A stretch of 37,355 nt of DNA from an uncultured Verrucomicrobiota bacterium (GTDB lineage: Bacteria; Verrucomicrobiota; Verrucomicrobiia; Limisphaerales; UBA9464): assembly GCA_903858835.1 (NCBI GenBank), contig CAIOKD010000062.1, forward strand, positions 1-37,355. The letters run 5' to 3'. Positions within the stretch are counted from its first letter, which is position 1, and each line of letters starts with the position of its first letter. Positions 4,302-37,124 of the stretch are shown here, in pieces. The notes beneath the pieces were generated by a model. That model ran no database searches. It was given only the letters and a program-made list of their open reading frames with translations, and was not told the origin of the DNA. A program made the position numbers and the translations under genes.

Positions 4302-5906
4302 ATGCCCCGCGCACCGAAAGACCCGTCCGCACCCAAAAAGGCACGGACGCCCCGAAAGAAGTCCGAGATCCCGCCGGAGTCCGCGGATGAATCGCCGAAA
4401 TCCTCCAAACCCGAGGCACCGATCGCAGCCGCGGAATCCACCCCCCGGATCAACACCGCCGAGGACACCTCGCTGAACGTGCCGCCGCCCCAGCCCGGAC
4501 AGGTCCGCACCCGGGAGGCCGACGAGGAGCCCTTGGTCGTCAAAGCATCCCCGCTGCCGCCCCGGGCACGCATGGCCCCGCCCAACGAGGATGCGCCCGT
4601 GCCCGATGCCCCCGAGAAACCCCAGGTGGTGATCGAGCCGAAGACCCTCAACCTGCACGAATTGCAACCGATGCCCATCGGGCCTCTGGCCGACGTGGCC
4701 AAGCATTTCGGCATCGAGAACTACGGCACGCTCAAGCGCCAGGAGATCATCTTCCAGATCGTCCAGCGCAACCTGGCCGCCGGCGGCATCATCAACACCC
4801 GCGGCGTCCTGGAGGTGATGCCGGAGGGCTTCGGTTTCCTGCGTTCCCCGGCCTTCAATTACCTGCCCTGCCCCGAAGACATCTACGTGTCCCCGTCGCA
4901 GATCCGCCGCTTCGACCTGGCCACCGGCGACGATGTCGAGGGACAGGTGCGCCCGCCGAAGGACAAGGAGAAGTTCTACGCCCTGCTGAAGGTCGAGCGC
5001 GTGGCCGGACTCGATCCCGACAAGGCGAAGGAGAAGACCCACTTCGAGAACCTCACCCCGCTGTTCCCGAATCGGCGCTTCCTGCTCGAGACCTCGCCCG
5101 ACGAATACAGCACCCGGGTCGTCGACATCGTCTGCCCCGTCGGCAAGGGGACCCGCGGCCTGATCGTCGCCCCGCCCCGCACCGGCAAGACCGTGCTGAT
5201 GCAGAAGCTGGCCAACGCCATCCTCAAGAACAACACCGACTGCCACCTGATCATCCTGCTGATCGACGAGCGCCCGGAGGAGGTCACCGACATGGAGCGT
5301 TCCTGTCGCGGGGCCGAGGTGGTGAGTTCCACCTTCGACGAGCCGCCCGAGCGTCACGTCCAGGTGGCCGAGATGGTCATCGAAAAAGCCCGGCGCATGG
5401 TCGAGCACAAGAAGGACGTGGTGATCCTGCTCGATTCGATCACCCGCTTGGCGCGCGCCTACAACACGGTGCAGCCGCATTCGGGCAAGATCCTCTCGGG
5501 CGGCGTCGACGCCAACGCATTGCACAAGCCCAAGCGCTTCTTCGGGGCAGCCCGCAACATCGAGGAGGGCGGATCCCTGACGATCATGGCCACGGCGCTG
5601 GTCGACACCGGCAGCCGCATGGACGAGGTGATCTTCGAGGAGTTCAAAGGCACCGGAAACATGGAGATCCACCTCGACCGTTCGCTGGTCGATCGCCGCA
5701 TCTTCCCCTCGATCAACATCGAGAAGTCCGGCACCCGCAAGGAGGAGCTCCTGTACCATCCCGACGAATACCAGCGCATCTCCGTGCTGCGCCGCGCCCT
5801 GGTCGGTGTCCCACCCGTGGAATCGATGGAACTGCTGCTCGGCAAACTCAAGAAGACGCCGAACAACATCATGTTCCTGCTGTCCATGGGCGCGCCCTCG
5901 CGTTGA
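4302..5906 (+). CDS. rho: Transcription termination factor Rho with N-terminal low-complexity extension
   Basis: [27 protein letters not shown], Walker [50 protein letters not shown]. Confidence 0.97.
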
Positions 5907-5928
5907 GGGCCGAGGCACCGACGCGGTT

Positions 5929-6951
5929 TCAACCGCGCCCAAGCGGACCATGTGATCCGTGGGCGGACTCTCCGCGCAGGCGATTGAGTTGGTCGCGCAG
6001 ATCGTCGAGCCCGCCCACCAGAACCGCTCCGATCGATTCGATCTCGGAACGGTAGGCTGCGCTGGCTCGCCCCCCCACCAAGATCCGGGTGGAGGCGGGC
6101 AGCAGACGCCGGAGCAGCTTCAGCTCCAGAGCGAGTGACGGATCGCCGGTGGGGTGCACCACGCTCAACCCGACGGCCTTCGCCCCCTGCTCGGTGGCCA
6201 TTCCGGCGATCTCCTCGGCCGGAAGGCACGCACCGCCGTAGACCACGCGCCAGCCCAGGCCGGTGGAGGCAGCGGCAACGATGATCGCCCCCAGTTCATG
6301 CACCTGTCCGGAGGGCGTGGTGACCACCATCACCGGGGCCCGCGGGTGCAGAGCGATCGGCCGGGCGATGTTCCCCAGGAAGGTACGGAGGACCGACGTG
6401 GCCACGTGCTCCTGCGACACCTTCACCTCGCCGCGCAGCCAACCATCCCCGATGCGCTCGACCAGCGGCACGATCAGCTCAGCCAACAGCCGCATCTGAC
6501 CCATCGCCACGGAGGCTCGTTCCAGCAGGCCCTCCAGGCCCGCAGCGTCGGTCCGCAACACCGCCTGGAAGGCTCCCTCCAGGAAGCCCAAGGTTTCTTC
6601 GGCGGCTGGCGCGCTCCCGACAACGAAGGGCACTCCGATGCCCCCGCCGACGGGCGAGAATTCTCTGGAATGCTCTACGGAGGCGAAACCCCGATCGGAG
6701 CCCGATAGAAGGGAGCGCAGGGAATCGACGGAAAGAGACGCGATGGTTCCGATCGAAAACCCGGCCTCGGTCGCGCGACGCAGCAGAGTCAATCGCTCGA
6801 TGTCCGCGGCCGAATACAGGCGCTGCCTGCCCTCGGAACGGGCCGGACGAACCGTCTGATAGCGTTTTTCCCAAGCCCGAATGACATGGGGACTCAAACC
6901 CGTTTGCTGTGCGACGGTCCTGATCGAATGCTTGACCGCGGGATCACTCAT
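5929..6951 (-). CDS. CarH/LitR-type cobalamin-binding MerR-family transcriptional regulator
   Basis: MerR HTH ([23 protein letters not shown]...[10 protein letters not shown]); helical cap with W-x9-EH ([12 protein letters not shown]); B12 Rossmann motif QxH-xx-G-x41-S...GG (GQVHELG...VGLSVV...ILVGG). Start ATG 6951. Confidence 0.88.
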
Positions 6952-7062
6952 TTCCGAACAACGTTGACCGAAAGTTGAACACAAGCAAGACATACGAATC
7001 CAACTTAGACAAAGGATTTCAAAAAGGACCAACCAAACACCAAAAAACCATGAAATCAGGTC

Positions 7063-7129
7063 TTTGTTGAAAATTGTTAGACATTTCGAAATCCATTTGT
7101 TGACATTTCGTCTAAGTTTGAACTAAGTT
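7063..7129 (+). promoter_or_regulatory. Phased 11-bp direct-repeat array (CarH-operator-like) overlapping the sigma-factor promoter
   Basis: Consecutive 11-mers from 7063: tttgttgaaaa / ttgttagacat / ttcgaaatcca / tttgttgacat / ttcgtctaagt / ttgaactaagt. -35 TTGACA at 7100-7105 and -10 TAAGTT at 7124-7129 (18-bp spacer). Confidence 0.7.
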
Positions 7130-7189
7130 GGTTGCAGCTCGCTTCCAAAGGTCCGTCCACGGAAATCTCAACTCCAGAAATCTACGCTG

Positions 7190-8341
7190 ATGAAATCCAG
7201 AAAGCTCCCCCGCAGCAAGGCGACCTCCCCGTCAAAGCCCTCCAAAGCCACGAAACGGGCCGCCCTCACTCGGGCCACCTCCTCCAAGCGGAAGCTGCAG
7301 CGTAAAAAATCAGCCTCTCGGAAAAACATATCGCCCACCCCTCCGGCTCGCCCGGTGACCGTGCGGTCGATCTCCCAAGCTCCTCGCGCGGCCAAGGGTC
7401 GCGGTGAACCCGTCGCGCAAAAGCCCGGGGTGCTCATGGTCGACGGAATCCCCGTGGTGCCAACCCCGGCCGAGCCGGTCCGCGACCTGTACGAGTCGAA
7501 GAGCGCCCTCAATCTCTACATGCGCGAGGCTGTGGAAGTGCCTCTGCTGACCGTGGCCGAGGAGAATGCCCTGGCTGCGAGGATCAAGAAGGGCGACCCG
7601 GTGGCACGTGAACACATGATCCGGGCGAACCTGCGTCTGGTGGTGAAGATCGCCAAGGATTACGACGGTCTCGGGCTTCCCCTGCTCGATCTGATCAACG
7701 AGGGGAACATGGGCCTGATGAAGGGTGTTGAACGTTTCGACCCCTCCAAGGGCGGCAAGCTCTCCACCTACAGCTCCTGGTGGATCAAGCAATCGATCAA
7801 GCGGGCCCTGGCCAACCAGTCCAAGACCATCCGCCTGCCGGTGCACCTGGTGGACAAGATTTCCCGGATGCGCCGGGTGGCCATGGAACTGCAGGAACTC
7901 TTCGGCCGCGAAGCCACGGACGAAGAGATCGCCGAGGAGATGGAGGTGCCGCTCCGGAAGGTGAGGCTGTGGCGCCGGGCGTCCCTCCGCACCAGCTCCC
8001 TCGACGAATCCCTTGGCGACGAGGATTCCAGCAAGCTGGGCGACGTGGTTCCTGATGAGTCCTGCCAGACCCCCTACGAGGACCTCGAGAGCCGAACCAC
8101 CCATCAACTGCTCCAGAACAGCCTGCACATCCTGGACTCGCGCGAGATGACCATCCTCCGGGAGCGATTCGCCCTCGACGGCGGTCAGGAGAAGACCCTC
8201 GACGAGATCGGGCAGAAGTTCGGCGTCACCCGAGAGCGCATCCGCCAACTCCAGAATATCGCGCTGGCCAAGCTTCGGAAGAAGATCGAAGCGGTCGAGG
8301 CGGTCCGGATCCCGGAGACCGCCGAGGACGGCATCCACTGA
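7190..8341 (+). CDS. RNA polymerase sigma-70 factor, RpoD/SigA/RpoS family (no acidic region 1.1; basic N-terminal tail)
   Basis: Region 1.2 ALNLYMRE...LLTVAEE; region 2 MIRANLRLVVKIAKDY...DLINEGNMGLMKGVERFDP...STYSSWWIKQSIKRAL; region 3 TIRLPVH; region 4.2 TLDEIGQKFGVTRERIRQ. Confidence 0.93.
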   Translation: MKSRKLPRSKATSPSKPSKATKRAALTRATSSKRKLQRKKSASRKNISPTPPARPVTVRSISQAPRAAKGRGEPVAQKPGVLMVDGIPVVPTPAEPVRDLYESKSALNLYMREAVEVPLLTVAEENALAARIKKGDPVAREHMIRANLRLVVKIAKDYDGLGLPLLDLINEGNMGLMKGVERFDPSKGGKLSTYSSWWIKQSIKRALANQSKTIRLPVHLVDKISRMRRVAMELQELFGREATDEEIAEEMEVPLRKVRLWRRASLRTSSLDESLGDEDSSKLGDVVPDESCQTPYEDLESRTTHQLLQNSLHILDSREMTILRERFALDGGQEKTLDEIGQKFGVTRERIRQLQNIALAKLRKKIEAVEAVRIPETAEDGIH

Positions 8342-8361
8342 TCCGCCAAAGGCTTCGAACG

Positions 8362-8410
8362 AAACCTCCCGACAGCCTCCCGCAAGGGATGCTTCGGGAG
8401 GTTTTTCGTT
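8362..8410. terminator. Intrinsic terminator, probably bidirectional, between the sigma gene and acpS
   Basis: AAACCTCCCGA (8362-8372) pairs with TCGGGAGGTTT (8394-8404); inner TCCC-GCAA-GGGA hairpin; followed by TTCGTT. Confidence 0.8.
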
Positions 8411-8450
8411 GGGGCCCGCTCCGGCGTGGGGAGGAGGGCAACCGGGTCGA

Positions 8451-8828
8451 TCATCCCTCCAAGATGGCAACGGCCGAGGCGTAGCGGGCCGTATGGGTGA
8501 GGTTGAGGTGGAGAATTTGCGCCCCCCTGCGACGGAACAGCTCCGCTCCCGCCCCGTGGAGTTGGACTCGTGTGCTTCCGGTGTCCATTCGCACCACCTC
8601 GATGTCGAGCCAACCGATGTCTGCACCGATGCCCGTCCCAAAGGCCTTGCTCACCGCTTCCTTCGCGGCGAACCGGGCGGCGACGTGAGTAGCGGGATCT
8701 CCGTGACCGAAGCAGTAGTCGTACTCGGGAGGGAGCAGAATCCTGCGGGCGAATCGTTCGCCCAGTCGCTCGAGCGAATCTCGGACCCGCCCCACCTCCA
8801 CCAGGTCGATGCCCACCCCGAGGATCAT
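8451..8828 (-). CDS. acpS: Holo-[acyl-carrier-protein] synthase
   Basis: [41 protein letters not shown]; 4-bp overlap with the pdxJ stop. Confidence 0.95.
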
Positions 8829-11952: not shown

Positions 11953-12714
11953 TCACGCCTCCTCCCGGCGGCTTTGACGAAACCGGGTGGGTGTCATGCC
12001 CGTGGCGGCGCGGAAGGCCCGGGTGAAGGCGCTGTGATCATAGAAGCCGCAGGCGTGGGCGATCTCGGCCACCGGCTTGCCGGTTTCCTCCAGCAGGCGT
12101 GAGGCGGCCGTCAGTCGGGTATGGGCGATCCACTGGCTCGGGGTGGTCCGGAACAGTCGCTTGATGAGTCGAGCGAACCGAACCGGGGGGATGCCCGCCT
12201 TGTCGGCCAGGACCGTCGGGCTCAGTTCCTCGTCGTAGTGGGCTTCCAGGTATTCGAGGGCCGCCGCCAGGCCGGCCGGGATCCTGGCGGCACCCGCCGG
12301 CACCTGCAGATCGCGGGAGATGCCCACCAGGCCCGCAATCCTTCCGCCGTCGTCCCGGATGGCGAATTTGGTGGTGAAGCACCATCCGGTCTTGCGCCGG
12401 GGATACCAATGCAACTCGAGCTTCTCCACGATCGGCCGCCCCGTCCTCAGGACCGCTTCGTCCTGACGGGCGAAACGCGTCGCCAACTCCTCCGGATACA
12501 CGTCTCGAACCGTCTTGCCCACCAGGTCCTCGGCCCTCTGGAAACCCACCCGCTCGGCGAGAGATCGGTTCACTGCGGTGTAGCGACCCGCGGTGTCCTT
12601 CACGAAAAACGCGGTGTCGGGCACATGCTCGAAGATCTCGGCCAAGAGCTTCACTGGAAGTCGGGGCAATCCGGGCGCACCCGCGGCCCCGCCTGTGCGG
12701 ACTTTGGCGGACAT
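11953..12714 (-). CDS. PAS-domain AraC-family transcriptional regulator
   Basis: PAS_4 (FEHVPDTAFFVKDTAGRY...GLVGISRDL) plus AraC HTH (EIAHACGFYDHSAFTRAFRAATGMTP). Start ATG 12714. Confidence 0.9.
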   Translation of the reverse strand: MSAKVRTGGAAGAPGLPRLPVKLLAEIFEHVPDTAFFVKDTAGRYTAVNRSLAERVGFQRAEDLVGKTVRDVYPEELATRFARQDEAVLRTGRPIVEKLELHWYPRRKTGWCFTTKFAIRDDGGRIAGLVGISRDLQVPAGAARIPAGLAAALEYLEAHYDEELSPTVLADKAGIPPVRFARLIKRLFRTTPSQWIAHTRLTAASRLLEETGKPVAEIAHACGFYDHSAFTRAFRAATGMTPTRFRQSRREEA

Positions 12715-12765
12715 GTTCGGAGGGTGCTGCAAGACCCGCTCCCGGGCGATGTCAGAGTGGCAGCC

Positions 12766-15342
<2,577 letters not shown>

Positions 15343-16829: not shown

Positions 16830-19800
16830 TCAGTTGCGGGTCACGGTTTCGTCGAGGTTCAGGAGCAGGTTGGCCGTGAGGGTATAGGCGGCCAGTTCGG
16901 TCTCGGGCAGCCCTGCGGGCGGCGCCGATTCGCCGACGCGGATGGCCTTGCGGGCCGATTCCGGATCGGCCTGATACCGTTGCCGGAACCGGTCCAAGGT
17001 GGACCGGACGACCTCGAGTTCCGGCGCGGTCGGCGGCCTGGACAGGAGGGTCTTGAAGGCGAATCCGATGCGGTCGTCGGGTCGGGAACCGCCCTCAGTC
17101 ATCATGCGGCGGGCCAGCCCGCGGGCGGCCTCGAAGTGCTGCACGTCGTTGAGGAGTTGCAGCGCCTGCAGGGGCGTGTTGCTGCGCTCGCGGCGCGAAC
17201 AGAATTGCTCGCGGTTCGGCGCATCGAAGGTGGCCATGAAGGGCGGCGGCGCGGTGCGCTTGAAGAACACGTAGAGGCTGCGCCGATAGAGGGCCGCCCC
17301 CGATTCCTGCCGGTAATTGCGGGTGTTGGAACCGCTGTAGCCCACCGGCTCCCAGATGTTCGGCGGTTGGTACGGACGGACGCCCTTGCCTCCGAGCGTG
17401 CCATCCAGGAGCCCGGAGACGAACAGGGCGTTGTCGCGCAACTGTTCGGCGTCCAAGCGGAAACGGGGGCCACGGGCCAGCCAGCGATTCTCGGGATCCC
17501 GCTGCAACAGCGCGGGCGGGACGGACGCCGACTGCCGATAGGCCGCCGAGGTCACGAGCATCCGGACGAGGGCCTTCACGTCCCAGCCGGATTCCTGGAA
17601 GGTGACGGCCAACCAATCGAGCAACTCCGGATGACTGGGCGGCTCCCCCTGCGAACCGAAGTCGTCGGAGGTCTTCACCAGGCCCACTCCGAAGAACTGC
17701 TGCCACAGGCGGTTCACCGTCACCCGAGCCGTCAGCGGGTGTTCCGAGGACACCAGCCACCGGGCCAGGTCGAGACGGTTGGGTACGGGCCCGGAAGGTT
17801 TGAGGGCCGGGAAGGCGGCCGGAACGGCGCGGGTGACCTTGTCGCCCGGGGCGTCGTACTGGCCGCGCACCATCACGAAGCTCTCCCGGGGCTTGTCCAT
17901 GTCGCGCCAGATGAAGGTCTGGGGAATCTGCCCCTGGAACTGGTCGCGCTGCTGGCGCAGATCCGCGACCGCGGCGTTCAACGGATCGAGAACCGGTCGG
18001 GTCTCCGAGCACACCTTGCCCAGGTAGTGGTCGCGGAGGAGGCGGGTCTGCTCAGGGGTCCGCTGGTCGGCGGAGACCTCCTTGAGGATCTTCCGCAGGG
18101 CCTCGGGGATTTCCTTCGATTCCTTGCCCTGGTTCTGCGCGAGCCAGACCGAGAACGAACTTCGGGGATCCCGGGCGGGGTCGATGCGGCCCGTGATTCC
18201 GGCGTGGTCCCAGTGGACCCGGCCGCCATGCTGGGTGTAGGCGATCCCGGTGACGGGCTGCCCCGCCTTCAGCCCCACGGCGTCGGCATCGAACTCGAGT
18301 CGCACCCACTCGCCTGCCGCGGGCAACGGACCGGCGTGCTGGCGGCTCGGCTTGCCCTTGGCCCCCCAGTCGGTCGCATCGACATCGCCCCACACCACAC
18401 GGTGTTCCCAGTCGCCCTGGAAGAACTGGAGCATCACCAACTTGGGCAGCGAGGCCGGATCGAGACGGACCCACGCGAAGACCTTGGCCGAGGCCGGCAC
18501 CTCCAAGGACAGGCCCTCGTAGACCGTCTGGATCAGTCCGTCGCCCCGCTGCTGGAGCGAGGATTGCCCGGATTTCACGGGGCCTTCCGGGGCTTTCACC
18601 CAGACGGGCGATCCCTGCACGCGGGCCCCGGCCGGGGTGCCGTCTTCCAGCCAGATCGTCTCGATGTCCCGGGCCTGGGGCGGCGGCTGGAGCGTCGCCG
18701 GATCGGTGTAGGCGAGGCCGCGAACCCGGGTCTCAACCGCCTGTTCGGCCTCCCGGATGCGCCCGTCGAACTCCGCGAGCTTCTGGGCGTCCTTCTCGGA
18801 CTTCACCGGCACGACCGGGGGCGTGCGCAGCGCGTTGCCATCCATGGCCGGATCGGCGGCGCTGTGGAAGAACGCGTACATCGAGTAGAACTCCTTCTGG
18901 GAAATGGGATCGAACTTGTGGTCGTGGCAAACGGCGCATCCGGCCGTCAGTCCCATCCAGGCTTGGGCGGTCGTCGCGGTGCGCTCGACGGCGTAGCGGA
19001 AGATGAACTCGGCATCGATGGCCCCGCCCTCGCCCGTGGTGACGTTGTTCCGATTGAAGCCGGTGGCCACCAACTGGTCCTGCGAGGGGTTGGGCAGAAG
19101 ATCGCCGGCCAACTGCTCGATGGTGAATTGATCGAACGGCAGATTCCGATTGAAGGCGCCCACCACCCAATCGCGGTAGGGCCAGATCTGGCGCTCATTG
19201 TCGAGGTGAAGCCCGTGCGTGTCGGCATACCGCGCGACATCGAGCCAGTGGCGGCCCATCTGCTCGCCGTACTGCGGGGTGCCCATCAGGCGATCGACGC
19301 AGCGCTCGTAGGCCCCGGGACGCGCATCGGCCAGGAAGGCATCCACCTCGGCCGGCGTGGGGGGAAGGCCCCGAAGGTCCAGGCTCAGGCGGCGCAGCAC
19401 CGTGGCGCGATCGGCCTCCGCGCCCGGATTCACCCCTTCCTTCCGCCAACGTTCCGCCAGGAAGGCATCGATGGGATGGACCCCGCCCTCGGCCATCCCC
19501 GGTGACCGGACCTTTCGAGGCGCCTCGAAGGCCCAGTGCTTCTGGTAAGGGGCCCCCTGCTCGATCCATCGCCGGAGGATGCCCTTCTGCGCGGCCGTGA
19601 GTGTCTTGTGGGATTCCGGAGGCGGCATGATCGATTCCGGGTCCTGCGTCTCCAAACGGTGCCACAACTCGCTGGATTTGAGGTCACCCGGCCGGATGGC
19701 CACCCGGCCGTCCTTGTTGGGAGTGAATGCCCCCTCCGCGGTATCCAGTCGCAGTCCCGCCTTTCGCTTCTTGGCATCGAATCCGTGGCAGGAGAAACAG

Positions 19801-19928
19801 TTGTCCGACAGGATCGGGCGGATGTCCCGATTGAAGGTCAAGTCTGCCGCCAATACGGAGAAAGCGGAGGCGGTCGCCAGCGCCATCATTCCCCGGATCG
19901 AACACGACACCACACGCTTGGGAAGCAT
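16830..19928 (-). CDS. PSD1 / planctomycete cytochrome c protein (PSCyt1 + DUF1549 + DUF1553)
   Basis: Signal peptide; [18 protein letters not shown] (CxxCH); HWAF; [12 protein letters not shown]; [11 protein letters not shown]; HPELLDWLA; RRSLY; NTPLQAL; LLNLDET. Confidence 0.92.
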
Positions 19929-32732: not shown

Positions 32733-34187
32733 TCAAGCAATGAGCTTGTCGACCACCTCGCCGAAGACGTCGGTCAGGCGGAAATCGCGGCCCTGGAACC
32801 GGTAGGTGAGCTTCTCGTGGTCGAAACCCAGCAGTCGCAGGATCGTGGCATGCAGGTCGTGGACATGGACCTTGTCGACCGCGGCATTGAAGCCGAAGTC
32901 GTCAGAGGCGCCCACGGTAATGCCCGGACGGACCCCCCCGCCGGCCAGCCACATGGAAAAACAGTTCGGGTGATGGTCACGCCCGTCGTCGCCGCCCTGC
33001 ACCATGGGCGTGCGGCCGAACTCCCCACCCCAGATCACCAGGGTGTCGTCGAGCAACCCCCGGGCCTTGAGATCCTGGATCAACGCAGCGTTGGCCCGGT
33101 CGGTGTCGGCGCAGTTGCGCTTGAGGTCGCCAGCCAGGTTGCCGTGCTGGTCCCAAGCCTCGTGGAAGATCTGCACGAACCGCGTGCCGCGCTCCACGAG
33201 CCGGCGCGCCAGGAGGCAGGCCGTGCCATAGGTCGTCTTGCCGGGGGTAGCCCCATAGAGGTCCAAGATATGCTGGGGCTCGCTTCGGATGTCCATGAGC
33301 TCGGGCGCGCTGGATTGCATCCGGTAGGCCATCTCGAACGAATTGATGCGGGTGGCGATCTCGGGGTCCCCCACCCGTCCCAGGCGCTGCCGGTTGAGTT
33401 CCTGGATGGCGTCCAGGGTCTGCCGTTGGGCGGTGCCATCCACCCCCTTCGGATTGGAGAGGTAGAGCACCGGATCGCCCCCACTTCGGAACAGCACTCC
33501 ATTGTGCACGCTGGGGAGGAAACCCGCCCCCCAATTGGAGGCGCCGCCGCTGGTGCCCTTGCTGCCGGTGGAGAACACCACGTAGGCGGGCAGGTTGCTG
33601 CTCTCGCTGCCGAGACCGTAGGTTGTCCAGGCGCCGAGGCTCGGCCGACCGAACTGCTGGGACCCGGTGTTCATGAAAATCTGCGCCGGGGCATGATTGA
33701 AGGCGTCGGTGTGCATCGATCTCACGATGGCGATGTCGTCGGCCACGCTCGCCAGGTGCGGCATGAGTTCCGAGATCTCCTGACCAGAACGGCCATGCCG
33801 AGCGAACTTGAACTTGGGGCCCAGCAGCTTGGAATTCGGGCTGATGAAGGCGGCCCGGTATCCCTTCAGCAACTCGGCCGGCGGCAGCTTGCCGCTCCAC
33901 TTGGCCAGCTCCGGCTTGTGGTCGAAGAGTTCCAGGTGACTGGGGGCCCCGGCTTGGAACAGGTAGATGACCCTCTTGGCCTTGGCCGGGAACGGGGACG
34001 GCTTGGCGGACAAGTGCCCGGCGGCGGAGACCGGCGAACGGCCGGTGGCCGCCTGGGCCGAATCGCCGAGCAGCGCGTGCAGGGCGGCCATCCCGAGACC
34101 CACCCCGCAGTCCCGAAAGAACCAACGCCGAGTCAGGTGGGCCCGATGCTCCGAAAGGGCGTGCTGGAGAACGGAGATGCGATTCAT
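32733..34187 (-). CDS. DUF1501 domain protein (Tat signal)
   Basis: TRRWFFRD; [25 protein letters not shown]; NHAPA; FEMAYRMQ; WDQH; WGGEFGRTP; GRDHHP. SD AAGGAG upstream of ATG 34187. Confidence 0.9.
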
Positions 34188-34192
34188 AGGGT

Positions 34193-37078
34193 TCACTCCT
34201 TGGTGATGGTCTCGTCGAGGTTCAAGAGGGCCCGGGCCACGGCGGCATGGGCGGCCAGGGTGGCCGGGGTGACTCCCGGAGGCAGGTCTCCCACCGGGCC
34301 CGTACCGCCGGTGGCGAGTTCCGAGGCATTCAACCAACCCTCGGCGATCCGGGTCCGCTGTTGGAGCAGGAGATGACCAAGCACCTTCAGTTCCTCCGGG
34401 CGGGGCGACCGGCCCAAGACCTGCCGGAAGGCGAAGGTGATCCGCTGCTCGTCGGTCTTGCCGCCCTCGTTCACCGATTTGAGCGCCAGCGCCCGCGCGG
34501 CCTCCACGAACTGGGGCTCGTTGAGCGAGGTCAGGGCCTGCAATGGCGTGTTGGACCTCAGACGCCGGACACACGAGGCGTCGCCGTTCGGTGTGTCGAA
34601 GGCCTGGAGGACCGGATAGGGAATGCTGCGGAAACGGAACGCGTACAACGACCGTCGGTACCGGTCGGGCCCCTTCTCCTCGATCCAGGTCTTCGGCCCG
34701 TAGCTGGCGGGCGGCTGGAACAGGAACTCCGGAGCCGGCGGATAGACCGCACGCCCACCTAGGGCTGGATTCAGAAGCCCGGACACCGACAGCGCGATGT
34801 CACGAACGATTTCGCCCTCGACCCGGAACCGCGGCCCGCGGGCCAGAAGACGGTTGTCGGGGTCCCGCTCCCGCAGGGCTTCATTGAAGCGACTGGACTG
34901 ACGATACACGGCCGAACCGGTGATGAGCCGGTGCAGATGCCTCAAGGACCACGGGGGCACCCCGGGCTGGGAGGGCTCCATGAACTCGACGGCCAACCAG
35001 TCGAGCAGTTCGCGATGCGAGGCCGGCGGGGACTGCGTCCCCAGGTCTTCCACGGTCTCCACCAGACCGACCCCGAAGTACTGTTGCCAGACCCGATTGA
35101 CCGCCACGCGCGCGGTCGTGGGTGAACGGCGATCGGTGAGCCAGCGGGCCAATGTGAGTCGGGAATCGTCGGCGCCCGGCGGCAGCGGATGCAGGAATGA
35201 CGGGGTCGCGTGGCCGACCTCGCGGTCCGGCTTGAGCCAGTCACCCCGGCGGAAAACCCGGGTCGCCATCCGAGCCTCGCCGGGCCCCTCTCCGCGACGG
35301 GCCGCGAACACCAGCGCGGGCGAGCCTTCGGGCCATTGCTTCCAGAGCGCCTCGATCCGGGCATTGGCTTCCGCGAATTCCGGGCGGGTGGTGCGCCAGT
35401 GGGAGAACACGGCCGCGGTCTGGCCAGCGGTGCGACGCTCGGCCGGGACCATCACCACGATCTCGCGCACGGCCGCCGGCAGCGGGTCGGCCACGGCATG
35501 GGTGGCGGCGGTGACCGAGATCCGGAAACGACCGAGGTTGTGGGTCTGGAGGTCGTCGGAATTCCACCCGCCATGCTCCTGGTGGAGTTCGATCTCCAGG
35601 ATGGCTCCCTTCGGGAAGGCCACGGGTTTCTCGGCGACGAACACGGCCTTGCGGGACTGGTTCCGCCGTCCCGGCCCGGCGTCGATGCCCCAGGCGGTGT
35701 CCATCTTGCCGTCAATGGCGTGGGACACCGGACCATAGGTACGCTTCTTGCCCGAGCGGTCGTCGAACTCCGCCTCCAGGGGTTTCTCCTCGTTGGAGAA
35801 ATCGGCGGTCGCGCGGACGAATTTCACCGAGGTCTTGTTGGTCGGATTCTGTCGGTCCCAGGCGGTGACCTTGAACTCGCTCAGGGCCGCCATGCCGCGG
35901 ATGGATCGGCCAGGGCCCTGGCAGGGCAGGTTCGGGTCGGTGAGCTGCTCGAGGCGGAAAGCCGCGATCGAGGGAAGATCATTGGTGCCCCGGAAGTGCG
36001 CGGCCCATTGGGTGGGCGCATAGCTGGCCGCTCGGATGGATCCGTCTTCGTACTGGTAGAAGCGTTCACCGTTGTCGCCGACATGCTCGCAGCGGACCAC
36101 GGACCATTCGGGCTGCTCACCCCGCACCGAGGCCTCCCAGGCGGCCATGCGGGTTTCCCAGTCGGGCGTGGTGTGGCGGAGCCCCTCCTCCTCTTCACGG
36201 ATCTGCCGGGCCAACTGGTCGCGAAGGCGTTGCTCGGTGGGACTGTAGGCGACCATCGAGGATTCGTGGTCGTTGTTCAGGAAGGCGAAGAGCCGGTAGT
36301 ACTCCTCCTGCGAGATCGGGTCGTACTTGTGGTCATGGCATTGGGCGCACTGGATCGTGATGCCCAGCACCGCCTTGCCGATGCAGTCCATGCGGTCGAT
36401 CAGGCCGTCGATGCGGAACTGCTCGGGATCGGCCCCGCCCTCTTCGTTGAGCATGGCATTGCGCAGGAACCCGGTGGCCACACGCTGGGAATCGGTGGCC
36501 CCTGGCAATTGATCACCGGCGATCTGCTCCACAAGGAACCGGTCGTAAGGAAGGTCGCGGTTGAGAGCGTCGACCACCCAGTCGCGGTAGGCCCAGACGA
36601 AGCGGGGCTTGTCCTTCTCGAAACCGTCGGAATCGGCGTACCGGGCCGCATCCAGCCAATGCCGTGCCCAGCGCTCGCCATGATGGGGCGAGGCCAGCAG
36701 GGCCGAAACCGCCCGATCCCAGGCCTGCGGGGACTTGTCGGTCACGAAACGATCGACCTCGGCCGGCGAGGGCGGCAGTCCAGTGAGATCGAGGTGCAGG
36801 CGACGCAACAGGGTGACCCGGTCGGCCTCGGGAGAGGGCTTGAGACCCTCCGCCTCAAGGCGGGCCAGAATGAACCGGTCGATGGGATTGCGGACCCATT
36901 CCACTCGGCGCACGGGGGGCAACCCAGGGCGGACCGGAACCTTCCAGGCCCAGTGGTCGCGGCGCACGGCATTCGTCGGCGAGGCTCCCCAGCCCGCTAC
37001 GCCCATGCAGAACCACCCCAGGAGCGCGAACCGGACGCCCCAGCGTGCAGGGATGGAGGAAAAGGCGAGGGTGTTCAC
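34193..37078 (-). CDS. DUF1549/DUF1553 (PSD1) protein lacking the N-terminal PSCyt1 domain
   Basis: Signal-like N-terminus followed directly by DHWAWK; NPIDRF; WLDAARYADSDG; CAQCHDHKYDP; LLDWLA; RRSLY; NTPLQAL; LLNLDET. Start GTG 37078 preferred. Confidence 0.9.
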   Translation of the reverse strand: MNTLAFSSIPARWGVRFALLGWFCMGVAGWGASPTNAVRRDHWAWKVPVRPGLPPVRRVEWVRNPIDRFILARLEAEGLKPSPEADRVTLLRRLHLDLTGLPPSPAEVDRFVTDKSPQAWDRAVSALLASPHHGERWARHWLDAARYADSDGFEKDKPRFVWAYRDWVVDALNRDLPYDRFLVEQIAGDQLPGATDSQRVATGFLRNAMLNEEGGADPEQFRIDGLIDRMDCIGKAVLGITIQCAQCHDHKYDPISQEEYYRLFAFLNNDHESSMVAYSPTEQRLRDQLARQIREEEEGLRHTTPDWETRMAAWEASVRGEQPEWSVVRCEHVGDNGERFYQYEDGSIRAASYAPTQWAAHFRGTNDLPSIAAFRLEQLTDPNLPCQGPGRSIRGMAALSEFKVTAWDRQNPTNKTSVKFVRATADFSNEEKPLEAEFDDRSGKKRTYGPVSHAIDGKMDTAWGIDAGPGRRNQSRKAVFVAEKPVAFPKGAILEIELHQEHGGWNSDDLQTHNLGRFRISVTAATHAVADPLPAAVREIVVMVPAERRTAGQTAAVFSHWRTTRPEFAEANARIEALWKQWPEGSPALVFAARRGEGPGEARMATRVFRRGDWLKPDREVGHATPSFLHPLPPGADDSRLTLARWLTDRRSPTTARVAVNRVWQQYFGVGLVETVEDLGTQSPPASHRELLDWLAVEFMEPSQPGVPPWSLRHLHRLITGSAVYRQSSRFNEALRERDPDNRLLARGPRFRVEGEIVRDIALSVSGLLNPALGGRAVYPPAPEFLFQPPASYGPKTWIEEKGPDRYRRSLYAFRFRSIPYPVLQAFDTPNGDASCVRRLRSNTPLQALTSLNEPQFVEAARALALKSVNEGGKTDEQRITFAFRQVLGRSPRPEELKVLGHLLLQQRTRIAEGWLNASELATGGTGPVGDLPPGVTPATLAAHAAVARALLNLDETITKE

Positions 37079-37124
37079 AACCCCAGCATCCTGCCCCCGG
37101 CATTCCCGGCGGTCCAATCGGATT

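Follow-up and report, generated by a model that had tools for sequence, protein, structure and literature searches.

A CarH-type B12-binding regulator divergent from a group-2-like sigma-70 paralog: a candidate light switch in Verrucomicrobiota

The window analysed here is a stretch of 37,355 nucleotides from an uncultured bacterium of the Verrucomicrobiota (order Limisphaerales); it is one contig (CAIOKD010000062.1, C62 below) of a 3.0 Mb assembly of 337 contigs which is 78% complete. It contains a divergent gene pair, made of a carH/litR-like gene (5929-6951, minus strand) and of a gene that encodes a sigma-70 paralog (7190-8341, plus strand). The two genes probably form a light switch, in which an oligomer of CarH loaded with adenosylcobalamin (AdoCbl) would repress the sigma promoter in the dark and release it in the light. 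The elements on which this reading is built were computed directly: the domains and motifs of the regulator, the conserved pairing of the two genes, the conserved phased repeats between them, the confinement of these repeats to sigma genes linked to carH, and the presence of an RpoD distinct from this sigma.

In the proposed mechanism, the CarH/class I LitR-type protein would bind AdoCbl and oligomerise in the dark, and the oligomer would occupy TnnACA repeats phased at 11 bp, including the TTGACA -35 box, which would block sigma transcription. Light would photolyse the cofactor, whose Co-C bond is destroyed, and the oligomer would dissociate and leave the DNA. The sigma gene would then be transcribed as a single gene, ending at its own terminator, and the new sigma factor would steer RNA polymerase to genes located elsewhere in the genome. 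A lack of AdoCbl would act like light. In this scheme we infer that the protein binds AdoCbl, forms oligomers and binds DNA, that its control is a repression, and what the regulon is.

The regulator is a protein of 340 residues whose start codon (ATG at 6951) is shared by its homologues. It is composed of a MerR-type helix-turn-helix (HTH) DNA-binding domain (residues 9-71, 6739-6927; Pfam PF13411 MerR_1, 63.2 bits), a four-helix-bundle cap (residues 125-192, 6376-6579; PF02607 B12-binding_2, 34.8 bits) and a Rossmann B12-binding domain (residues 208-310, 6022-6330; PF02310 B12-binding, 36.4 bits), all encoded on the minus strand. The four-helix bundle includes the motif W171-x9-E181-H182 (codons 6406-6441), and the Rossmann domain bears H218-xx-G221-x41-S263...G293-G294. 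In an alignment of 26 homologues, W171, E181, H182, H218, G221, S263, G293 and G294 are all invariant. The closest solved structures are those of CarH from Thermus thermophilus (TtCarH; 3whp, E 8e-31, and 5c8d, E 1e-30), and the match spans both the DNA-binding and the light-sensing parts of the protein. W-x9-EH and the histidine of H-xx-G align residue for residue with TtCarH, H218 being placed in the region of the cobalt-ligand histidine.

This domain order and both motifs had been pointed out by the sequence-only reading of the stretch; because the motif residues are invariant in the homologues and aligned with TtCarH, the motifs are real. The MerR HTH, the W-x9-E-H bundle, which in the family covers the cofactor's upper face, and the B12 Rossmann domain with the lower-axial histidine of H-xx-G ... 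S-x-L ... G-G, by which the family is recognised, are thus all present, and the product of 5929-6951 is, from its sequence, a CarH/class I LitR-type protein of the AdoCbl type (the place of class I among the LitR classes is treated in PMC9758184). Residues ~72-124 (6579-6739) make a linker of about 50 residues between the MerR and B12 modules; its length varies widely among members of the genus, and it is short in TtCarH.

The sigma-70 paralog has 383 residues. Pfam identifies region 1.2 (7505-7597; PF00140, 29.6 bits), region 2 (7616-7825; PF04542, 62.6 bits), region 3 (7856-8080; PF04539, 61.7 bits) and region 4 (8123-8281; PF04545, 63.5 bits), all on the plus strand, and gives no match to region 1.1 at E<=0.01. 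The protein stays under the cut-off of all NCBIfam RpoD/RpoS models: it scores 261.9 on TIGR02393 (RpoD_Cterm), for a cut-off of 354, and is also below the RpoS/RpoD equivalog cut-offs of TIGR02394 (280.7/378.7), PRK09210 (284.2/572) and PRK05658 (274.1/555). A second RpoD-like sigma, encoded on contig C24 and truncated by the contig end, reaches 395.6 on TIGR02393, above 354; among the listed matches in relatives, C24-like sigmas (~45% identical) are mostly found in open frames of ~640-1040 residues.

Because the C24 sigma passes the RpoD cut-off and the window sigma passes no RpoD or RpoS one, the latter is assigned by sequence comparison as an alternative, group-2-like sigma-70 paralog, neither housekeeping nor of the extracytoplasmic function (ECF) type. 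The two other identities were considered and ruled out. The housekeeping role is taken by the separate primary sigma of C24, and ECF (group 4) factors such as LitS and CarQ have only regions 2 and 4 in about 200 residues, versus 383 residues with regions 1.2 and 3 here. The sequence-only reading had described a non-ECF, RpoD/RpoS-like factor of group 1/2 type beside CarH. Regions 1.2, 2, 3 and 4 confirm the first part of this description; group 2 also stands, but group 1 does not, given the missing region 1.1 match, the RpoD_Cterm score and the separate RpoD. The N-terminal ~100 residues (7190-7489) form a very basic tail rich in K, R, S, T and P, at the place where group 1 sigmas hold the acidic region 1.1. 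The sequence of this tail is variable, yet it is present throughout the carH-linked sigma lineage described below. Elsewhere in the genome, a FliA-like gene on contig C316 adjoins motA/motB-like open reading frames (ORFs).

The association of the two genes is conserved. Within the same family, 35 of 36 genomes have a carH homologue, as do 8 of the 24 other families of the order. Of the 29 loci of the relatives, 28 have the sigma gene next to carH and divergent from it, and the remaining one (L017) stops at a contig end. Fifteen more carH loci, taken from this family and order, divide into sigma-linked (6/15) and unlinked (9/15). A database scan with the alignment, from which the best 80 of at least 589 matches were taken, gives 45 loci with a divergent sigma and one more with a sigma 1.7 kb away; these best 80 loci all come from metagenome-assembled genomes (MAGs), mostly labelled Verrucomicrobiota, with Limisphaerales or Pedosphaera among the labels, and no cultured relative with the pair was identified among them. 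The synteny check that had been proposed for the pair therefore has a positive outcome, keeping in mind that the compared genomes are related and that pairing and repeat counts are not independent.

In two loci labelled Latescibacterota (L078 and L113), the gene downstream of carH, in the same orientation, is a distant member of the sigma-70 family with 32-33% identity to the window sigma; carH and sigma are thus laid out differently in this other phylum. The MAG labels of L051, L054, L059, L082 and L116 (Akkermansia muciniphila, Kapaibacterium, Bifidobacterium) clash with the nesting of their carH or sigma sequences among Verrucomicrobiota, and these public labels look unreliable.

A tree of the sigma factors was rooted on the RpoD of the genome and included the linked sigmas together with 20 unlinked sigmas of the same subfamily, whose genomes lack carH, have it elsewhere or contain a second paralog. 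In this tree, 19 of the 20 unlinked sigmas fall in one group, with a support of 90 in the Shimodaira-Hasegawa-like approximate likelihood ratio test (SH-aLRT). The linked sigmas are found in clades of 42 rows (SH-aLRT 98) and 21 rows (87), so that two label changes are enough to explain the distribution. The window sigma belongs to the 42-row clade, which consists solely of carH-linked sigmas. Since the tree separates linked from unlinked sequences, the linked sigma is, on this phylogeny, a distinct paralog lineage, seen solely beside carH in the sampled loci. In the CarH tree, the window protein is part of a clade of 45 rows (support 99), 42 of which are sigma-linked, and linkage is clustered over the whole tree (12 changes, compared to 33 in shuffles). 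A single origin of the linkage as one CarH clade was rejected, as at least four changes are forced.

The divergent control region between the two genes (6952-7189) is 238 bp long and AT-rich. Its GC content of 0.39-0.42 (0.42 for 6900-7099 and 0.39 for 7000-7199, in segments of 200 nt) contrasts with 0.56-0.70 in the adjacent segments; the ORF coordinates and this drop agree with the arrangement described in the sequence-only reading. The CarH operators described so far consist of 11-bp direct repeats in tandem, nnnnTnnACAn, which overlap the -35 or the -10 element (PMC9304148). CarHTt has three repeats, with the -35 contained in one of them, and CarHBm has four repeats overlapping the -35 or the -10 (PMC9304148).

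Similar elements are present on the plus strand of the control region. A full TnnACA repeat, TAGACA (7078-7083), lies 22 bp upstream of TTGACA (7100-7105), which is both a full repeat and the -35-like hexamer of a putative sigma promoter. The same 11-bp register includes a pseudo-repeat TTGAAA (7067-7072), with three of the four motif letters, and a degenerate central unit AAATCC (7089-7094). At +19, the pseudo-repeat TGAACT (within 7119-7129) overlaps a -10-like TAAGTT (7124-7129), whose spacer to TTGACA, read from the sequence, is 18 nt. The sigma promoter may thus be placed at 7100-7129. On the other side, 19 aligned intergenic regions of the genus share a conserved block, GTTGAACACAAGCAAGACA (6974-6992), located 23-41 nt upstream of the carH start and containing TGAACA (6976-6981); this block could be the carH promoter or a second operator.

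A consensus scan of 5700-8700 called neither a promoter nor a terminator. However, when 8340-8412 is folded, it forms a hairpin whose energy is -37.7 kcal/mol (z -5.2), and none of 200 shuffles was equally stable. The terminator-like hairpin and the U-run that follows it occupy 8358-8410 on the plus strand, 3' of the sigma gene, with UUUUUCGUU directly after the hairpin. The simple scan missed it because the loop exceeds the length allowed by its rule, and the strong terminator claimed earlier for the end of the sigma gene is upheld by the fold.

The repeats were compared over 67 unique intergenic regions of linked loci. The spacings between TnnACA motifs peak at 11 bp, with 83 pairs versus 0.5 per shuffle, and further peaks are seen at 22 (31), 19 (19), 30 (37) and 41 bp (22). 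The motifs are more numerous on the sigma-sense strand than on the opposite one (314 vs 84), and 60 of the 67 regions contain at least one full pair spaced by 11, 21 or 22 bp (shuffle mean 1.6, maximum 7). Of 68 unique linked loci, 65 have a TTGAC[AGT] anchor, and in 56 this anchor makes a full TnnACA. Relative to the TTGACA anchor, motifs concentrate at -22, -11, 0, +19 and +30; the repeats thus cover the -35-like box and, for many of the relatives, also extend over the -10 and the start. Within the genus of the window, TAGACA-N15/16-TTGAC[AG] occurs in 17 of the 22 listed loci, the window being counted. By this sequence comparison, the tandem 11-bp nnnnTnnACAn operator of the CarH family is present.

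These positions bear on the idea that the repeats serve only the autoregulation of carH, the sigma gene being expressed independently. The conserved block with TGAACA 23-41 nt upstream of carH would suit such a role, and carH/litR genes are often autoregulated (PMC11519972). Nevertheless, it is the sigma-sense strand that has the main repeats, and the TTGACA anchor is located 90 nt upstream from the start codon of sigma and at a median of 139 nt from that of carH. In addition, relatives hold more repeats downstream of TTGACA, toward sigma, and the linked sigma lineage is seen solely beside carH in the sampled loci. Autoregulation as the sole function is therefore considered very improbable.

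The repeats appear restricted to the sigma genes that are linked to carH: pairs spaced by 11 or 22 bp are upstream of none of the 19 unlinked related sigma genes (out of 20) that have usable upstream DNA. In the 3.0 Mb of the genome that carries the window, the strict pair T[AT]GACA-N15/16-T[AT]GACA has a single site, at 7078-7105, and the reversed-pattern control has none. Looser operator patterns occur at the level of the controls (10 vs 7, and 5 vs 5), and no further operator was found in this 78%-complete genome. A near-palindromic element, TCAACAGTTTGTGAACA / TTCACAAACTGTTGACA (G000:C239:9916-9934), came out of the loose repeat scan and is probably the site of another regulator.

Three tandem TnnACA motifs occur 12 times in 41 genomes of the family, compared to 3 times in the control. 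Four of these 12 triples are at carH-sigma regions, two are upstream of unlinked carH copies, and three are upstream of other genes, which encode fasciclin-domain proteins; the unlinked carH site of L135 also adjoins a fasciclin gene. The proteins concerned are secreted fasciclin-domain proteins (PF02469, 133-145 bits), whose genes lie directly downstream of the three tandem motifs (L137:922-1413, minus strand; L143:306-863, plus; L144:1537-2112, plus; L135:833-1327, minus). From these sequences, fasciclin genes look like a recurrent target of CarH.

It could also be supposed that no regulatory link exists, the synteny being simply inherited and the repeats being promoter or UP-like AT-rich elements, or the sites of another factor. 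The pair is indeed surrounded by housekeeping genes (rho, acpS and pdxJ are among the 10 ORFs scanned around it), and kin inherit a common gene order. However, the carH-sigma pair persists in loci where rho and acpS do not adjoin it, and the repeats are in strict 11-bp phase and in a single orientation. They are missing upstream of the 19 related sigma genes that have no adjacent carH, while repeats of this type precede fasciclin genes and the carH copies that are unlinked. There is thus very little chance that the two genes are neighbours and nothing more.

The residue at one position of sigma region 2.4 (7780-7810), which we take to be T440 of E. coli sigma-70, a -12 contact, was compared between the groups. 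It is K (43) or R (14) in the linked sigmas, K (19) in the unlinked alternative sigmas and T in the RpoD of the genome. As a marker of the linked lineage this residue fails, K or R being found in linked and unlinked sigmas alike. When the promoters are aligned, those of the sigma genes often have, in our own reading, a -10-like element that starts with C. K or R at this position combined with a C-initial -10 would possibly allow the sigma factor to recognise its own promoter.

According to the sequence-only reading, the window contains neither carotenoid nor photolyase genes, and it suggested a search for such genes elsewhere in the genome. Genome-wide searches agree with the first point, as the SQS_PSY and DNA_photolyase matches are on other contigs exclusively. 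As to the second, two photolyase/cryptochrome-family genes were found on contigs C286 and C78, and the genome also has two PduO-type adenosyltransferase genes; no crtI_fam match above cut-off was obtained in this 78%-complete genome, and tblastn (E<=1e-5) detected neither CrtI nor fasciclin homologues in it. One of the two SQS_PSY genes is an HpnD (293.7 vs 278.6) and the other is HpnD/HpnC-like, under the cut-offs; the two suggest that squalene is made rather than phytoene. Over the family of the window, crtI_fam is above cut-off in just 2 of 37 genomes. The regulon in this family is probably not CrtI-type carotenogenesis.

The situation is different in more distant relatives. A crtI-family gene follows the sigma gene on the same strand, sometimes after a short-chain dehydrogenase/reductase (SDR) gene, in 13 of 20 distant linked loci (L034, L035, L075-L077, L091, L093, L099, L102, L107, L108, L112 and L116), and the three that were scanned score 531-542 bits on TIGR02734 (crtI_fam), for a cut-off of 238. 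Thus, the separation from carotenoid genes holds for the window and for most of its own family, but not for the distant relatives, in which the sigma promoter would also drive crtI. The layouts can be arranged as a series, from carH-crtI to carH-sigma-crtI and then to carH-sigma alone where crt genes are rarely found; the order of these events is one that we infer. In the flanks of 41 unlinked carH loci (76 ORFs), Fasciclin is the commonest family, with 10 ORFs, ahead of Amino_oxidase (5) and DNA_photolyase (4).

Metagenomes from lake, river and freshwater sites (12 studies) contain the stretch. Near-identical contigs on parts of both genes are present in four RNA-library runs, which belong to three studies, and none of these contigs extends over 6670-7251; such contigs show neither level, strand nor light dependence, and DNA carry-over is possible.

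The protein might report the availability of B12 (AdoCbl) rather than light, the sigma factor being expressed when the cofactor is lacking. In characterised members, apo-CarH does not bind DNA (PMC9304148), so that a lack of B12 and light give the same output. A cobalamin riboswitch was also not found in the 78%-complete genome, which can be counted in favour of this proposal. On the other hand, the W-x9-EH residues of the photochemistry are invariant, and the relatives tie the module to crtI, and the unlinked carH copies to photolyase. The habitat, lake and river water, and the two adenosyltransferase genes of the genome also speak for light, and a sensor of B12 alone is judged quite unlikely.

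Another proposal is that the regulator is a light-dependent activator of the sigma promoter, or a dark repressor that becomes an activator in the light. MerR-family proteins are often activators. For Streptomyces LitR at litS, a model of this kind has been drawn (PMC11519972). Yet the spacer between the -35-like and -10-like elements is 17-18 nt here, whereas MerR-type activation uses a long spacer of 19-20 nt. The repeats, moreover, lie over the -35 and, in many relatives, also at +19/+30 over the -10 and start, which is the occlusion layout of CarHTt and CarHBm (PMC9304148). Activation is thus unlikely, although it deserves slightly more weight than the B12 proposal.

Several observations weigh against the repression of the sigma promoter by CarH as described above. 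The regulator scores 135.5 bits on the NCBIfam CarH equivalog NF052513 (TransRegCarH), below the cut-off of 400; as this model is narrow, the miss speaks against the protein being strictly equivalent to the CarH proteins that were modelled, but leaves its membership of the family untouched. The window holds just two full repeats (7078 and 7100), the central unit being degenerate. When the window alone is shuffled, its best three-repeat chain is equalled in 118 of 500 cases and its best four-repeat chain in 12 of 500, which is weak; this test randomised the strands separately, and the comparative counts were relied on instead. These counts, in turn, overstate the independent support, the compared loci being kin. 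The -10 element of the putative sigma promoter is non-canonical, and the simple promoter scan called nothing there. With a genome that is 78% complete, the "only site" of the strict pair means the only site found. No operator and no shared motif was seen upstream of the two photolyase-family genes and the two HpnD/HpnC-like genes of the genome, so no target of the sigma factor was identified from the upstream regions of these candidate light genes. LitR in its light form is also described as an activator of litS in the Streptomyces model (PMC11519972), so that pure repression is not certain. Finally, the whole case is computational.

A broader proposal, which is put forward only tentatively, is that in this freshwater family CarH has one direct target, a duplicated RpoD-like sigma which accompanies it as a module of two genes, and that the whole response to light and B12 is exerted through a group-2-type sigma with a dispersed, non-pigment regulon. 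In its own genome, the sigma gene would be the only detectable target of CarH. The retention of the carH-sigma pair where crtI is rare points to a wider light regulon in abundant lake bacteria. If the proposal is true, the sigma regulon might include, for example, photolyases or photo-oxidative stress genes, and the pair would let light govern the choice of promoters on a global scale in a bacterium that is not a phototroph. A module as compact as one repressor, one operator and one sigma would be of interest for the light responses of non-phototrophs and for optogenetic use.

Other features of the window are mentioned here for completeness. Rho (4302-5906) has an N-terminal extension of ~119 residues rich in P, K, E and A, and Pfam Rho_N begins at residue 120. 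A protein of 1073 residues of the dipeptidyl peptidase IV (DPP-IV)/prolyl-oligopeptidase type (12121-15342) has a Pfam match to the VHL beta-domain (43.7 bits, residues 392-449). Proteins of the PSCyt1/PSCyt2/PSD1 type (DUF1549/DUF1553) and a DUF1501 protein are encoded at 16830-19928, 32733-34574 and 34193-37117.

In the accessible part of the open-access literature, no description joining CarH, Verrucomicrobia and sigma was found, and the arrangement is not apparent in the titles or opening lines of the abstracts of the papers listed for CarH, sigma factors, genomic context and photolyases. The known CarH and LitR proteins act at pigment operons or, in Streptomyces, via a small ECF sigma; here the conserved target would be a full-length RpoD-like paralog.

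The domain order and signature residues of the regulator are those of T. thermophilus CarH and Bacillus megaterium CarH/LitR (PDB 5c8a/5c8d/5c8e and 3whp). About a third of the aligned residues are identical to those of the solved CarH, by a by-eye estimate, and the window protein has ~50 extra residues between the DNA-binding domain and the B12 module compared to TtCarH. The operators are also alike, with tandem 11-bp TnnACA repeats, one of them over the -35 (PMC9304148). The two strong repeats of the window, 22 bp apart with a weak centre, agree with the DR1/DR3 contacts that a single CarHTt dimer makes in head-to-tail arrangement (PMC9304148). However, the T. thermophilus and B. megaterium proteins act directly at crt promoters, whereas the target gene here would be that of a sigma factor.

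Myxococcus xanthus also combines a CarH-type repressor (CarH/CarA) and an alternative sigma (CarQ) in its response to light (PMC9304148, PMC8156234). CarQ, however, is an ECF factor which is freed from its anti-sigma by singlet oxygen in a parallel pathway, and it is not transcriptionally gated by CarH (PMC9304148, PMC8156234).

The closest likeness is to LitR-LitS of Streptomyces coelicolor and S. griseus, in which an AdoB12-type regulator is divergent from a sigma gene (PMC11519972). In Streptomyces, the litR-litS bidirectional promoters are under dark-state control, and the sigma factor LitS drives the light-induced crt genes (PMC11519972). Unlike LitS, which is an ECF (group 4) factor, the window sigma is RpoD/RpoS-like, with regions 1.2, 2, 3 and 4. 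LitS drives crt genes, whereas the family of the window mostly lacks crtI (present in 2 of 37 genomes), and the Streptomyces system belongs to the Actinomycetota, the present pair to the Verrucomicrobiota. From the sequence comparison, the pair described here is thus a variant of the Streptomyces LitR-LitS cascade, which differs from it in the class of the sigma factor, in phylum and in the rarity of crtI.

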